A stretch of DNA of 12,873 nucleotides from Candidatus Eiseniibacteriota bacterium (GCA_041946735.1 JBHGAY010000054.1:1-12873); one strand, 5' to 3'. Positions 684-4,449 are shown, numbered from the stretch's first letter. Numbers and translations are program-made. Notes: a model not told the origin generated them from the sequence alone.

Positions 684-760
684 GGGCGAGGGGCTGCGCG
701 CGTCCGGACCAGGACCTCACGCACGGGTGAGTAGAGCCGGACCTCTGCAGCGCCTCGCCT
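684..760 (+). other. Long imperfect stem-loop in the convergent intergenic region
   Basis: GGCGAGGGGCTGC 685-697 pairs with GCAGCGCCTCGCC 747-759 (one mismatch); GTCCGG 702-707 with CCGGAC 737-742; CTCAC 716-720 with GTGAG 727-731. Confidence 0.6.
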
Positions 761-769
761 TGTCAGGGT

Positions 770-807
770 GAGCCCCGGCCGCTGATCTCAAGCGCGCGCC
801 GGGGCTC
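770..807. terminator. GC-rich hairpin between convergent transcription units, possible terminator
   Basis: GAGCCCCGGC 770-779 / GCCGGGGCTC 798-807 form a perfect 10-bp stem, with inner CGCT/AGCG. No clear U-tract on either strand. Confidence 0.45.
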
Positions 808-862
808 GGTCGTTGGGGGCGGTATCAGAAACTCCTCCCGAACTGCGGCGAAACCTATACCG

Positions 863-1801
863 CTACTCCTCGCGTGGTCCGCCGTAGACGATCTCGGTGC
901 CCAGGTAGGGAGCGATCACCGCGTATCCTCGCCAGCCGTCGATTCTCTCGCCGTCCCTGTCGTGGCCCTCCTCGATCACCCAGTAGCGCAGCACCGCCGA
1001 TGCACGCTCCTCCTCCGGCAGCGAGGCGCGCGCCTCACGCAGCAGATCCAGCGCCTCCACCGGTGCGTTGCGCGGATCGTTGCCCGTGCCGTAGACGTCG
1101 CGCTCCCACCGCCAGCCCGGACGCTCCAGAGCCAGGCGCTCGTCGCGGTAGACCGCACCGCACTCGATCCCCTCCTCGAGGAGCCCGCGCAACCGCGCGC
1201 TGCCGTGCTCCCGCGCCCAACGCACGCGCTCCGCCTGCTCCGCGAGCTGCGGCGCCAGCCTGCGGCGCTTCGCCTCGGCCTCCGCCTCGGCTACCGCTGC
1301 CGGGACGTGAGCTCTCAGCACGTCGTAGCCGACGACCGTGTATCCGGTGTAGACGAGAGGTCCGTCCCAGTCGTAGCGCGCCTCCGTCGAGCAGTGCGCC
1401 AGGTAGCCCTCCGGCGTCACACGCCAGTCCAGCGGCAGCGCCGCCCACCGCTCTGCCCTGGTGCGATCCTCCGCCGCGCGCTCGGCCGCGTGCCGTTTCG
1501 CCGTCTCGACCGCCTCCCGGTGCTCCTCGACGACCGCTTCGGCGTGTGCGATCGCAGCCTCGGCGTCCACCGGGCGGGAGTCCGCAGCGCCGGAGACCTC
1601 GCTGTACCCGCTGCCCAGCCGGATCGGCACCGTGCACGTGGCCTCTCCGCTGTCGGAGACCGCGGTCCACGGCAGCGCCAGCAGTCTCGGTAGCAGCTCC
1701 GCCGGCACGTAGTAGGTCTGCGCCCGCGTCGCCGGCGCGCCCTCGAGCAGTGCCTCGCGCTGCGCGTCGTCGGTCAGGTGGATCGTGATCGTGTGTCCCA
1801 T
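863..1801 (-). CDS. Hypothetical protein (312 aa)
   Basis: ATG at 1801 follows strong SD GAGGAGGAATCC; starts MGHTITIHLTDDAQREALLEG. Protein-like composition, with charged helical segments and WAREHGSARL...EEG...Y..ERLA.ERPGW. No family recognised. Confidence 0.85.
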   Translation of the reverse strand: MGHTITIHLTDDAQREALLEGAPATRAQTYYVPAELLPRLLALPWTAVSDSGEATCTVPIRLGSGYSEVSGAADSRPVDAEAAIAHAEAVVEEHREAVETAKRHAAERAAEDRTRAERWAALPLDWRVTPEGYLAHCSTEARYDWDGPLVYTGYTVVGYDVLRAHVPAAVAEAEAEAKRRRLAPQLAEQAERVRWAREHGSARLRGLLEEGIECGAVYRDERLALERPGWRWERDVYGTGNDPRNAPVEALDLLREARASLPEEERASAVLRYWVIEEGHDRDGERIDGWRGYAVIAPYLGTEIVYGGPREE

Positions 1802-1813
1802 GGATTCCTCCTC

Positions 1814-1934
1814 GCGGGGCGCCTCGCCCCGCCACTCGCTCCGTCTGCCGCCGGCACCTCGCCGGCGCCCGCCCGGGACCACGCGGAGGTGGAGCTTCCC
1901 CGGGCACGGGGGGCGGGAGACCGTCCCACCCCCG
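1814..1934 (-). promoter_or_regulatory. Structured leader of four hairpins, two with GAGGY pentaloops
   Basis: Minus-strand hairpins: GCGGGGC-GAGGC-GCCCCGC (1814-1832), CGCCGGC-GAGGT-GCCGGCG (1849-1867), GCCCGGG..CCAC-CTCCGC-GTGG..CCCGGGC (1871-1905), GGGGGTGGGA-CGGTC-TCCCGCCCCC (about 1908-1933; one pair is G-U on the minus strand only). Confidence 0.6.
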
Positions 1935-1943
1935 GGTGAGTGC

Positions 1944-2231
1944 CTACTGCTGCGCGGGGCGCCAGTCGCGACCGACGACGACCCGGTAGGTGGACCGGTG
2001 GTAGACCTGTTGCCAGCCGCCCGCGCGACGGTAGGCGCTCGGGTGCGCGATCACGGTGCCGCCAGGGGTCGTGTAGTAGGAGCCGGTGCCGGTGGCGTGC
2101 GGCGCCTCGGCGCCGTCCACGAGCTCGACGGGCACGTAGCTCGGGACGCCAGCAGCCTGGCGAGCAGCGCGACGGTAGGCGAGAGAGTCGGTGGACAGGA
2201 TCGCGACGGGGGTGCTGAGGGTGGCGGACAT
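1944..2231 (-). CDS. Hypothetical protein (95 aa)
   Basis: ATG at 2231 with SD GAGGAGGT; MSATLSTPVAILSTDSLAYRRAARQAAGVPSY...DWRPAQQ. No family recognised. Confidence 0.8.
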   Translation of the reverse strand: MSATLSTPVAILSTDSLAYRRAARQAAGVPSYVPVELVDGAEAPHATGTGSYYTTPGGTVIAHPSAYRRAGGWQQVYHRSTYRVVVGRDWRPAQQ

Positions 2232-2235
2232 GACT

Positions 2236-2303
2236 GACCTCCTCGGTCGATGTCTCCCCCGGACCTCCCGGGGGCTGGAGCGTCGGATCACCTCGACCCG
2301 ACG
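2236..2303 (-). promoter_or_regulatory. Leader with three GAGG(T/A)-pentaloop hairpins
   Basis: Minus strand: CGTCGGGTC-GAGGT-GATCCGACG (2281-2303), CCCCCGG-GAGGT-CCGGGGG (2256-2274), GACC-GAGGA-GGTC (2236-2248, contains the SD). Confidence 0.65.
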
Positions 2304-2308
2304 CAGAC

Positions 2309-2359
2309 AGTATCGACCTGGGGCGCCTCGGCAACAAGCGAAATCGGCTGAAATCGGCT
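2309..2359 (-). promoter_or_regulatory. Sigma70-type promoter with upstream 10-bp tandem direct repeat
   Basis: TTGTTG (2337-2332)-17 bp-GATACT (2314-2309); alternative TTGCCG-16-TACTGT. The predicted start falls at the base of the first leader hairpin. GAAATCGGCT occurs twice, 2340-2349 and 2350-2359. Confidence 0.55.
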
Positions 2360-2370
2360 AAGGCATTGCG

Positions 2371-2979
2371 CTATGGATCGATCCAGGCGCCAGCGTAGGC
2401 GCTCACCTCGAAGCTCTGACAGTCGGGGAGGCGAGGCACGGACGGAAGCGTTGCGAACTTCGTCTCTCCGGGCTTTAGGCGATGGAAGAGGGCTCTCGCG
2501 CTCCACTCATTGCCCGCACAGTCCATGCCGTAGACGTGAACATCGATCGCTTCTTGCTCTCCGTCATTGCGGACGTAGACCGTGATCCCCCGGTACTCCA
2601 CGTCGGGCATGACACCCCAGGCAGTGAGCGTGTGATCGCGCCCTGGCTCGGACGGAGAGTCCTCCCCGCACCCCGCCAGCATCGCCGCCGCTAGCGCAAC
2701 GCCGATCAGCACGCAGGTGGCCACCCAGACGATCCGAGTCCTCCGCTTGTCGGCCTCGAGTTCTTCCTCGGTCATAGGTGGCCACTCTCGCGGCTCCTCG
2801 GGTTCCGGTGCGGCGAGCGCGGGTACCGCCAGGATGTACATGAATCCGAAGAGCGGCGAAACCAGGAGAGAGAAGAAGAAGACGCCGGCCGCGGACCGAT
2901 GCTTAGCCGACGCGATGGCCGCATTCACCCCAGATCCGACGAGCCAGAAGATCACAGCAACAGCGATCGCCTCTGCCAT
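2371..2979 (-). CDS. Membrane protein (202 aa): two N-terminal TM helices, internal lipobox, FxLYD-like beta domain
   Basis: ATG 2979 with SD GAAAGGAGG. Hydrophobic AIAVAVIFWLVG and GVFFFSLLVSPLFGFMYILAV; then KRRTR-IVWVATCVLIGVALAAAM-LAGC (Cys104); then VYVRNDG...VHVYGMDCAGN...LKPGETKF, resembling the FxLYD domain. The track extension to 3309 overlaps int. Confidence 0.8.
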   Translation of the reverse strand: MAEAIAVAVIFWLVGSGVNAAIASAKHRSAAGVFFFSLLVSPLFGFMYILAVPALAAPEPEEPREWPPMTEEELEADKRRTRIVWVATCVLIGVALAAAMLAGCGEDSPSEPGRDHTLTAWGVMPDVEYRGITVYVRNDGEQEAIDVHVYGMDCAGNEWSARALFHRLKPGETKFATLPSVPRLPDCQSFEVSAYAGAWIDP

Positions 2980-3008
2980 GGGGCGGCCTCCTTTCGCTGG
3001 CGACGAGT

Positions 3009-4178
3009 TTACACGCCCCGCCCGAGCTCGTCTAGTCTCCTTGCCCACGCCTCCAGGGCAGCCCGCATCTCCGCCTCGTACTCGTGCCGGTCGTAGATCC
3101 CCGTCACCGAGGGGTCCGCGTGACCGAGGATCCGCCGGACGACGACGCGGGGAGTGCCGAGCGAGGCGCACCCGGTCGCGGCTGTGCGCCGGAGGTCGTG
3201 GGGCGTCGCGCGCTCGAGGTTGAGCCGGGCGCAGAGCTCGCGCATTCGTCGCGCGATCGCGACCCGGGAGTAGGGCTGCCCTCGCCGGCGGTCCGAGCCG
3301 AAGACCCACGGCCCCGGGTACGACGCGGCGGCCGCCTCGATCACCTCGAGGGCCTGGCGCGAGAGGGGAACCAGGTGCTCCCGGTTGCCCTTCGTCCGCT
3401 CCGCGGGGATCAGCCAGGTCCGGCTCGCGCGGTCCACGTCACGCACCCGCATCGTCGCGATCTCCCCCGGTCGCGCACCGGTGAGCAGAATCGCCAGGAG
3501 CGCCTGAGACGGGCGATCGTAGGCGGGGGCCTGGCGGAGCATCGGAACGAGGGCCGAAAGCTCGCGAGACGCGAGCGCTCGGTCTCGAGTCCGTCTCTGC
3601 GCCGGAGTCTCCACCCCTACACAGGGGGAGTGCGGGACGAGCTCGCGCCCGGGCGCCGCAGCCCAGGAGTACATCCGCCGCAGGACCGCGAGTGTGCGGT
3701 TCGCGGTGACCGGCGATCCCCGCCCGACGATGGCATCGAGGAGCGCGACGATCTCGCGTCCCGTGATCGAGGACGCGGGCCGGGCCTGCCAGCCCGGGGG
3801 GGTCTCCCGCCGGAGCAGCGCCTCGTCCTGGCGCCATGAGCGCTTCCGGGGGCGGGCGTAGAGCTCGAGGTACTGAGAGCGCAGCTTCTCGAAGCTGATC
3901 CCCTCGGTCGGTTGCGCGAGGACTACGGCGGGGTCCTGCCCGGCCTCGAGCGCCTCGAGCCCGCGCGCGTGACGCAGTCGCGCCTTCCCTAGCGAGAGCG
4001 CCGGGAAGGTGCCGAGAGGCAGCCACGTCTGCTTGCCGCCTTTACGCAGGCGGTAAACCATGATCCACGTCTTCTTCCCGGAGACCCCGACGCGGATCCC
4101 GAAGCCGCGCGACTCCCACTTCTCGTAGCGCTTCGGGCCCGGTCTCAGGTTGCGGATCCCGATGTCGCTGAATCGCAC
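3009..4178 (-). CDS. int: Tyrosine recombinase/integrase, P4-like (389 aa)
   Basis: Arm-binding N-terminus GFGIRVGVSGKKTWIMVYR..LGTFPALSLGKAR; catalytic motifs TGARPGE (R), TKG (K), HDLRR (HxxR), LGH and IYDRHEY (Y). SD GGAGGGG 5 nt before GTG. Adjacent to a tRNA 3' fragment. Confidence 0.97.
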   Translation of the reverse strand: MRFSDIGIRNLRPGPKRYEKWESRGFGIRVGVSGKKTWIMVYRLRKGGKQTWLPLGTFPALSLGKARLRHARGLEALEAGQDPAVVLAQPTEGISFEKLRSQYLELYARPRKRSWRQDEALLRRETPPGWQARPASSITGREIVALLDAIVGRGSPVTANRTLAVLRRMYSWAAAPGRELVPHSPCVGVETPAQRRTRDRALASRELSALVPMLRQAPAYDRPSQALLAILLTGARPGEIATMRVRDVDRASRTWLIPAERTKGNREHLVPLSRQALEVIEAAAASYPGPWVFGSDRRRGQPYSRVAIARRMRELCARLNLERATPHDLRRTAATGCASLGTPRVVVRRILGHADPSVTGIYDRHEYEAEMRAALEAWARRLDELGRGV

Positions 4179-4192
4179 GCGTGCCCCTCCGT

Positions 4193-4214
4193 GGCTAACA
4201 GCCGGCTAACAGCC
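4193..4214 (+). repeat. Integrase arm-type sites, left pair
   Basis: GGCTAACAGCC at 4193-4203 and 4204-4214; the same motif recurs on the other side of the att core. Confidence 0.8.
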
Positions 4215-4329: not shown

Positions 4330-4374
4330 ACTCTGGATCATGGAACCGGGGTTCGAGTCCCTGCTCCCCAGCCA
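4330..4374 (+). mobile_element. attP core: 3' half of tRNA-Gln(CUG)
   Basis: Anticodon loop CTCTGGA (CTG 4333-4335), TCATG, variable GAAC, T-arm CGGGG-TTCGAGT-CCCTG, acceptor strand CTCCCCA, discriminator G, CCA. The 5' anticodon stem, D-arm and 5' acceptor strand are absent. Confidence 0.92.
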
Positions 4375-4392
4375 CTTTGAAGGCAATGAGAT

Positions 4393-4423
4393 AGCCCCCG
4401 TCGGAGCGAGTCCGGCGGGGGCT
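4393..4423. terminator. Hairpin downstream of the tRNA fragment and of the convergent regulator gene
   Basis: AGCCCCCGTCGGA-GCGAG-TCCGGCGGGGGCT, a 13-bp stem with one T-G pair and a short T-rich 3' end. Confidence 0.65.
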
Positions 4424-4426
4424 TCT

Positions 4427-4449
4427 GGCTAACAGCCGGGCTAACAGTC
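4427..4449 (+). repeat. Integrase arm-type sites, right pair
   Basis: GGCTAACAGCC 4427-4437 and GGCTAACAGTC 4439-4449. Confidence 0.8.

Follow-up and report, generated by a model that had tools for sequence, protein, structure and literature searches.

Paired GG-pentaloop hairpins before the genes of a prophage cassette with a predicted HDV-like ribozyme

Introduction

Several described RNA signals resemble the element reported here, a set of small hairpins with GG-containing pentaloops ahead of two prophage genes that encode a 95-amino-acid (95-aa) and a 312-aa protein. The hairpins lie on a 12,873-bp contig (C50) from a 4.89-Mb, 68% GC metagenome-assembled genome of a Candidatus Eiseniibacteriota bacterium; the window analyzed is this whole contig. 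Among the described signals, lambdoid boxB is a short stem with a GNRNA-type pentaloop ending in A. It is read by N, occurs in copies before different operons and acts with N on transcription elongation. CsrA/RsmE sites are GG-containing loops on hairpins near or over the Shine-Dalgarno sequence (SD), often in several copies, and GGA is needed. ANTAR targets (EutV, NasR, AmiR) carry hexaloops in which position 1 is A and position 4 is G. A terminator is the competitor of their second hairpin, and a coiled-coil dimer takes one loop per subunit (PMC3369931). The guanidine-II riboswitch has two hairpins with identical conserved loops and a linker variable in length and sequence (PMC5558903). Cluster K mycobacteriophages, which infect Actinobacteria, carry the repeated signals SAS and ESAS before the starts of non-structural genes. 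SAS, a 13-mer of fixed sequence with the ribosome-binding site inside it, lies 3–7 bp from the start and holds an SD-like AGGAG between complementary ends, ESAS is a sequence-conserved 17-bp inverted repeat, and the reader of both is given as unknown (PMC3203893).

The locus also carries a predicted self-cleaving ribozyme. Why bacterial self-cleaving ribozymes associate with particular genes had not been determined as of a 2019 review (PMC6765202). This cassette bears on the reason for the clustering of hammerhead, twister and related ribozymes around certain phage genes.

Results

We located the window hairpins with a descriptor scan and checked them in minimum-free-energy folds of both intergenic regions (coordinates in Table 1). 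The initial annotation had described five GAGGN-loop hairpins on the minus strand, with divergent stems of 4–9 bp. The scan recovered them at those positions as four strong hairpins (1, 2, 4 and 5) and one weak one (3). The divergence of the stems stands, but their length runs from 4 to 10 pairs. All four strong hairpins are present in the folds; in that of hairpin 5, the GAGGC loop closes with a G-C pair, leaving an AGG triloop. Hairpin 3 is lost from the fold and is too weak to stand alone. It is probably just the ribosome-binding site of the 95-aa gene.

Comparisons with shuffled sequence and with coding DNA had both been suggested in the initial annotation. The minus strand of 1802–2370 holds four GAGGN-loop hairpins with stems of at least seven pairs, against a mean of 0.0065 and a maximum of one in 2000 dinucleotide shuffles. 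Genome-wide (9.78 Mb of strand), 14,381 hairpins combine a 5-nt loop with a stem of at least seven pairs, and 130 of them have GAGGN loops. This share, 0.9%, equals the background frequency of the 4-mer GAGG, which means no enrichment. Across the whole genome, four GAGGN hairpins within 490 nt occur on this contig only. The excess over shuffles, the flat genome background and the single four-hairpin site together show that the cluster is real and local, and exclude chance.

Relatives were reached through the 312-aa protein. A megablast against phage records returned no DNA relative, a DNA search of 61 related genomes gave short chance matches only, and scanning genome and viral contigs with single proteins turned up no relative; a profile was needed to reach homologs. 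This profile, alignment A1 of 312-aa homologs, led to 5 genome, 5 viral and 59 metagenome loci (L numbers below). The hairpin-bearing homologous cassettes among them lie on unrelated phage and metagenome contigs of 49–73% GC. We counted loop words within 1600 nt upstream of the homolog and on its strand, in L016–L084 with duplicates included. Among 797 hairpins with a 5-nt loop, no loop 4-mer is as common as GAGG, present in 45; ACGG and AAGG come next, at 20 each. Gene bodies and downstream DNA hold 10 GAGG loops in 1251 hairpins. Removing eight near-identical loci and loci with at most 200 nt upstream left 52 distinct phage and metagenome loci. These contain 34 GAGGN hairpins versus 4.0 ± 1.9 when shuffled (maximum 10 in 200 shuffles), and 124 NNGGN hairpins versus 47.9 ± 7.1. 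On five complete viral contigs, tandem GG-loop hairpins occur beside the 312-aa homolog only, and in G061 (71.9 kb) four of six GAGGN hairpins fall within 560 nt beside the homolog.

The loop varies within limits. In L022 (51% GC) and in L039 (68% GC), a small gene and a large gene each follow a GAGGU...GAGGC/A pair; loop-to-loop spacing within these pairs and those of the window is 21–42 nt. Two loci (L060, L066) have three AAGGU loops in tandem, and other lineages mix loops: AAGGU with ACGGU (L065), AAGGU or ACGGU with UCGGA (L057, L056) and GCGGA with ACGGA (L062, L077). We catalogued 61 loops in a search that fixed GG at positions 3–4. Position 1 is a purine in 55 and position 2 is A or C in 58, while G never occurs at position 5, which is U, A or C. 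C-G, G-C or A-U closes the loop. Since AAGGU, ACGGU and UCGGA replace GAGGN elsewhere, the constant part is a pentaloop with GG at positions 3–4 and not an SD complement.

The position relative to the gene is also constrained. From the start of the proximal loop to the start codon the median distance is 24 nt (interquartile range 22–26; 26 leaders). The proximal stem ends 0–3 nt 5' of the SD where one is present, and an ordinary SD usually follows. Where the start was placed by protein profile, 15 of 26 leaders have a GG-loop hairpin at −13 to −31. Several leaders hold a single hairpin instead of two. An alignment of 24 hairpin pairs with MAFFT (A2) was too poor to model, and the evidence consists of descriptor counts. 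Beyond the Watson-Crick seed, the hairpins contain eight internal G.U pairs versus two A.C pairs. This excess, together with the embedding of a hairpin in ribozymes described below, argues for action at the RNA level.

Comparison across these loci shows the hairpins, as far as sequence can, to be a conserved sense-strand mRNA leader module fused to the ribosome-binding site and kept with the protein family. The proposal in the initial annotation that a constant loop on free stems reflects selection on a structural motif is upheld by this recurrence before homologous cassettes of such different GC content, and by the contrast between upstream and coding DNA.

Two leaders have an additional feature. 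A terminator-like hairpin with a T-run stands between the GG-loop hairpins and the large gene at L021:2400–2455 and L046:2195–2232 (both plus strand), preceded in L046 by a 7-codon open reading frame (ORF). These two leaders may be attenuators or separate small RNAs.

One of the window hairpins belongs to a larger structure. The initial annotation gave each gene its own hairpin pair ahead of the SD. This holds for the 95-aa gene, but the distal hairpin of the 312-aa gene, hairpin 4, is stem P4 of a predicted hepatitis delta virus (HDV)-like ribozyme, and the five hairpins therefore belong to different functional units. A whole-window Rfam scan at E ≤ 1 gave no match. When the scan was limited to window 700–2450 (1.75 kb), an HDV_ribozyme match appeared at 1907–1835 on the minus strand (26.8 bits, E 0.26, model positions 1–89). 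This is under the Rfam gathering score of 50 bits (RF00094); related loci score 29–42 bits. Rfam HDV models are weak on divergent HDV-like ribozymes. We built a covariance model, R1, from three loci with the window excluded. With this model the window site scores 35.4 bits (E 2.7e-5 over 236 kb), and L052, L022 and L030 are also picked up.

The resulting alignment of seven ribozymes was fitted to the covariance model; in it 97.3% of the cells are paired, both sides differ in 12 of 16 pairs, and none of 500 shuffles and no slid register comes near. P2 is not in the model, and 5–8 contiguous P2 pairs form in all seven, each different in sequence. P1, P3 and P4 are nested in the canonical HDV order at window 1905–1838. 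In 7/7 ribozymes, GGC(U/A/C)GA follows P4 in J4/2, and L3 begins UCC with G at the sixth position; GG follows P1. The roles that these residues would have, C1847 as the putative catalytic cytosine of J4/2 and the others as L3/P1.1 nucleotides, are assigned from the alignment alone. The site is best described as a candidate HDV-like self-cleaving ribozyme, a new member of the class, with cleavage predicted. The hairpin just upstream of the predicted cut (1909–1933) could be the protected 3' end of the cleaved upstream mRNA.

R1 was also run on the genome itself, where 150 of 2141 candidates were scored; the window's own site is not among the matches listed, and three others that are (20–28 bits) lack P3 or P4 and were taken as false. 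A hammerhead or other ribozyme in intergenic region 1, before the 95-aa gene, was rejected for want of a conserved core.

Related cassettes have HDV-like, twister or hammerhead ribozymes at corresponding joints. A permissive Rfam scan of 16 homologous loci found a type P5 twister at L039:668–726 (plus strand; 48.2 bits versus a gathering score of 37.6), after the small gene and ahead of the large gene's hairpin pair. Sub-threshold HDV-like matches occur in L043 (twice), L040 and L022, with further ones in L030 and L052. Candidate type II hammerheads stand right after the large-gene stop on the plus strand at L065:2234–2290, L064:1569–1625, L067:2674–2730 and L069:2391–2447 (30.1 bits, under the gathering score of 37). 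The L065 candidate reads CUGACGAG for the CUGANGA core and CGAAAC for the GAAA core, with a GUC cleavage site. The corresponding slot in the window is 820–862 on the minus strand, just 3' of the 312-aa gene stop. It has a 6-pair stem around about 30 nt with the word CUGAUA, and no Rfam match at E ≤ 10. In L026, a weak R1 match (4126–4193, plus strand, 23.2 bits) lies downstream of the cassette and about 160 nt upstream of a tRNA gene (4353–4443, 54 bits).

The GG loop is shared between the ribozymes and the leader hairpins. In the HDV-like ribozymes beside the family, the L4 pentaloop ends in GGU in 7/7 (GAGGU three times; AUGGU, GCGGU, GUGGU and UUGGU once each), and a proximal NNGGH hairpin follows all except that of L052 (6/7). 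As a control, we scanned IMG/VR for the HDV core (L3 and J1/4 words) common to five of the seven ribozymes (L040, L043, L022, L052). At least 131 stretches matched in viral contigs, of which 80 were fetched (L103–L182), 72 of them distinct. An NNGGH pentaloop hairpin follows within the next 160 nt in 2/72, and NNGGH accounts for only 2 of the 81 5-nt hairpin loops, with the qualification that P4 detection was crude and that not every core match need be a ribozyme. The 312-aa family is absent within ±450 nt of all 72. GG loops near the family's ribozymes and their rarity in the control indicate that the loop belongs to the cassette and not to the ribozyme class. The core sometimes occurs twice within 2 kb of one viral contig. 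The control stretches point to many unannotated HDV-like ribozymes in phages. The pair is also kept where no ribozyme is detectable, namely before the first gene of the window, of L039, of L022 and of L043, and in L053 and L026.

The one partner that stays constant beside the hairpin module is the 312-aa protein. At E ≤ 1e-3 its family counts 1947 representative clusters, of which 307 remain at E ≤ 1e-30. The small genes before the large gene differ between loci. Those at L039:362–631 and L043:754–993 (plus strand) encode proteins alike by eye (ARDPRIV and YSERGGRLAS-type stretches) with faint similarity to the window 95-aa protein (E 2.5 pairwise); other loci have unrelated small genes in the same slot. 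In the 312-aa model (pLDDT 74), long helices at 80–120 and 167–199 separate an N-terminal from a C-terminal domain, both conserved. The latter contains Arg, Asn, Tyr and Trp residues that are invariant or nearly so, and the C-terminal 119 residues are modeled at pLDDT 95.6. An ESM Atlas search with the protein gave no usable hit. Structure searches gave little: for the full-length model Foldseek found nothing at E ≤ 1e-3 and the best VIA match (Z 4.9) covers the long helices only. For the C-terminal domain, Foldseek found nothing at E ≤ 1e-3 and no PDB match. VIA reached Z 3.8 with this domain, and 15 of its 18 top rows are Pol-beta-type nucleotidyltransferases. This weak resemblance is the only one that recurs. 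We rejected a Pol-beta-type RNA nucleotidyltransferase because the scores are far too low to be trusted and neither the GS..DE spacing nor the secondary structure agrees with one.

The window is the end of a prophage (Table 1). Downstream of the integrase lie three minus-strand genes, and the hairpins occupy both intergenic regions before the last two. The membrane, 95-aa and 312-aa proteins have no significant Pfam or PHROG family; the 95-aa protein has one distant homolog among 5.8 billion proteins. A promoter-like site 5' of hairpin 1 could, with low confidence and judged from its sequence, be the promoter for the 95-aa gene leader. A consensus promoter scan of window 700–3200 returned no sites, this one falling under the threshold. 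L039 and L043 have 11/12 sigma-70 matches just 5' of the first hairpin pair, whereas the window has a weak look-alike only. A terminator scan of the same 700–3200 region found one terminator-like site, inside a gene, and none in either intergenic region. A tRNA scan found none.

Table 1. Coordinates of the genes, signals, hairpins and predicted ribozyme elements in the window
Feature	Position	Strand	Remarks
Hairpin 1, distal, leader of 95-aa gene	2280–2304	minus	10-pair stem (one G.U); loop GAGGU 2294–2290
Hairpin 2, proximal, leader of 95-aa gene	2256–2274	minus	7-pair stem; loop GAGGU 2267–2263
Hairpin 3	2236–2248	minus	4-pair stem; loop GAGGA 2244–2240 within SD GAGGAGG of ATG 2231
Hairpin 4 (ribozyme P4)	1849–1867	minus	7-pair stem; loop GAGGU 1860–1856
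Hairpin 5, proximal, leader of 312-aa gene	1814–1832	minus	7-pair stem; loop GAGGC 1825–1821
SD GAGGAGG of 312-aa gene	1807–1813	minus	starts on base next to hairpin 5; ATG 1801
HDV-like self-cleaving ribozyme, predicted	1838–1905	minus	predicted cut between 1906 and 1905
Ribozyme P1	1905–1899 with 1877–1871	minus	
Ribozyme P2	1895–1891 with 1842–1838	minus	pseudoknot, 5 pairs
Ribozyme P3	1890–1888 with 1880–1878	minus	
Ribozyme L3	1887–1881	minus	
Ribozyme J1/4	1870–1868	minus	GGG
Ribozyme P4 (hairpin 4)	1867–1861 with 1855–1849	minus	L4 GAGGU 1860–1856
Ribozyme J4/2	1848–1843	minus	C1847 aligned to conserved GGC
10-pair hairpin	1909–1933	minus	ends 3 nt before predicted cleavage site
Weak promoter-like site TTGTTG-17 nt-GATACT	2309–2337	minus	by reading; about 5 nt 5' of hairpin 1
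95-aa protein gene	1944–2231	minus	no assigned function; ORF and SD by reading; ATG at 2231
312-aa protein gene	863–1801	minus	conserved partner of hairpin module; ATG at 1801
Membrane protein gene	2371–2979	minus	first after integrase
Tyrosine integrase	3009–4178	minus	
AlpA-type excisionase, RecE, RecT, SbcC-like ATPase	from 5140 onward	plus	

Discussion

The hairpin leader module is real and apparently undescribed. The initial annotation had suspected an undescribed cis-element. Rfam 15 has no family that matches the hairpin pair, whether in the window or in the 49 loci. Searches of the literature on tandem hairpins, pentaloops, prophage, ANTAR, ribozyme gene associations and RAGATH yielded no account of it, a comparison that leaves out the RAGATH motif list of uncurated hairpin candidates.

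We tentatively favor the possibility that a factor specific to the cassette, perhaps the 312-aa protein, docks on the paired GG loops and controls the translation of every cistron that the ribozymes set apart. The hairpins would be the leader module of a phage-borne accessory cassette transcribed as one unit, and self-cleaving ribozymes would, if they cleave as predicted, cut its transcript between cistrons. Each cistron stands behind one or two sense-strand hairpins with the pentaloop pattern R-(A/C)-G-G-(U/A/C). Two displayed GG loops would form the docking site for a sequence-specific trans-acting factor of the cassette. Its likeliest identity would be the 312-aa protein, a candidate because it is the constant partner, has a long-helix model and belongs to a large unannotated family; the long central helices could form a dimer with one domain per loop. 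Bound beside the SD, the factor would determine how well each mRNA released by a ribozyme is translated, and perhaps how stable it is. Cistrons that are physically separate would then be regulated together, much as with the ANTAR dimer that binds a dual hairpin or with lambda N at boxB, except that the control would act on translation. A broader version is doubtful: that the pair is the RNA operator of the phage 312-aa family, and that HDV-like, twister and hammerhead ribozymes are recruited interchangeably to split the mRNA into operator-headed cistrons.

Several observations weigh against docking of the 312-aa protein. Eleven of the 26 mapped leaders have no GG-loop hairpin at −13 to −31, so the family can do without the module. 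Loop types differ between lineages. The hairpin instances came from a perfect-stem descriptor, and the covariation of their stems is thus partly built in. No recognizable RNA-binding family or fold was found in the 312-aa protein by Pfam, PHROG, Foldseek or VIA, and a host factor or the ribosome could equally be the reader of the loops.

If the ribosome were the reader, the purine-rich loops could act as SD mimics or standby sites that pair with the 3' tail of 16S rRNA and hold the 30S subunit near the SD or shield the mRNA 5' end. STAB-SD elements, SD-like sequences that shield mRNA 5' ends, offer a parallel. Loops of the GAGGU and GAGGA type share 4–5 nt of complementarity with the anti-SD, the hairpin adjoins the SD, and nothing but the loop resembles an SD ahead of the start in L043/L045 and L042. 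The 16S 3' end is absent from the genome assembly, which makes the anti-SD tail of this genome unreadable. Eukaryotic HDV-like ribozymes in retrotransposon leaders have been proposed to promote translation initiation (PMC6765202). We nevertheless consider SD mimicry unlikely, given that 15 of the 61 loops (ACGGU, ACGGA, UCGGA, GCGGA, UUGGU, AUGGU) keep only three complementary bases and 13 end in GGC. GG keeps one fixed register, and AGGAG and GGAGG, the best SD words, show no enrichment as loops. Pentaloop geometry also forbids all five bases pairing at once, and at about 14 nt or more the loop lies too far from the AUG to serve as an SD. Together with the ordinary SD that usually follows, the non-SD loops and fixed register leave the link to the anti-SD, and the loop-displayed SD decoys put forward in the initial annotation, unsupported as stated there. 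Still less probable is a passive insulator or stabilizer, in which the hairpins keep the SD single-stranded and off C-rich ribozyme strands and protect the new 5' end, the loop being constrained by folding. The synthetic part RiboJ, with a hairpin added behind a ribozyme, is comparable. The stem ends 0–3 nt before the SD in most leaders, hairpins come after ribozymes, and first-cistron pairs directly follow consensus promoters, at the transcript 5' end. Insulation does not account for unrelated stems that share a loop register across 49–73% GC, nor for the same loop on P4 of all seven ribozymes and its lack in other phage HDV-like ribozymes; we know of no special stability of this pentaloop.

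Two further explanations have little in their favor. A riboswitch whose two loops meet around a small ligand and free or hide the SD, in the style of guanidine-II (mini-ykkC), would share the architecture described for that class of two matching-loop hairpins, a variable linker and an SD just downstream (PMC5558903), and some lineages have ACGG-containing loops. We regard it as very improbable. The GG loops are not self-complementary, which makes the kissing mode of guanidine-II impossible, and mini-ykkC has no Rfam match in the window region (E ≤ 10) or in the 49 loci (E ≤ 1–5). The neighbors are phage accessory genes and not transporters or carboxylases, and several leaders have a single hairpin. 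The slimmest chance goes to a DNA-level element, either joints for cassette shuffling or hairpins extruded in single-stranded DNA. The initial annotation had suggested recombination handles, and the small genes ahead of the conserved large gene do vary by locus, with each gene having its own copy of the module. The fixed spacing to the start codon, the sense-strand polarity, the excess of G.U over A.C and the copy inside a ribozyme fold point instead to RNA, and the differing stem sequences leave no homology to recombine on. The suggestion is not borne out.

The window and its relatives make a compact case: a two-gene cassette with a putative promoter of its own, a predicted ribozyme at the cistron joint and a conserved hairpin signal at each ribosome-binding site and also on a ribozyme arm, with a named partner in an unannotated family of about two thousand clusters. 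Were the operator reading true, the cassette would give a first concrete function for the unexplained association of ribozymes with phage genes, and a new RNA-protein recognition pair. The loops, if an operator, would be a natural counterpart of the synthetic part that places a ribozyme and a hairpin before a ribosome-binding site, and would provide a new small RNA tag for orthogonal translation control.

Each described system shares part of this design. Unlike boxB, the four strong window loops end in U or C, as do 47 of the 61 catalogued loops, and the site is the ribosome-binding site. CsrA sites differ in their GGA, which occurs in 14/61 loops and in the window only in weak hairpin 3. The guanidine-II loops are described as ACGR tetraloops that kiss via C-G pairs in another gene context (PMC5558903); those of the window are GAGGN, with no Rfam match. 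Relative to SAS and ESAS (PMC3203893), the window module conserves the loop only, and its hairpin lies 5' of the SD. The 13-mer given there is not in the window leaders; hairpin 3 shares only the idea of an SD between complementary ends.

The likeness to ANTAR targets (PMC3369931) extends to two small tandem hairpins with variable stems, conserved loop residues and a short linker. In the window, however, the loops are pentaloops (GAGGU/C/A) with GG at positions 3–4, and the proximal hairpin adjoins the SD. An ANTAR target was rejected, as neither intergenic region has a terminator and no ANTAR domain occurs among the 16 window proteins. With HDV-like ribozymes, the site at 1905–1838 shares the nested double pseudoknot P1–P4 and, judged by alignment, the U..G loop L3 and the GGC in J4/2. 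It differs from the others in a conserved P4 pentaloop ending in GGU, which is lacking in the 72 phage HDV-core matches, and in being followed by a hairpin of the same type and an SD.

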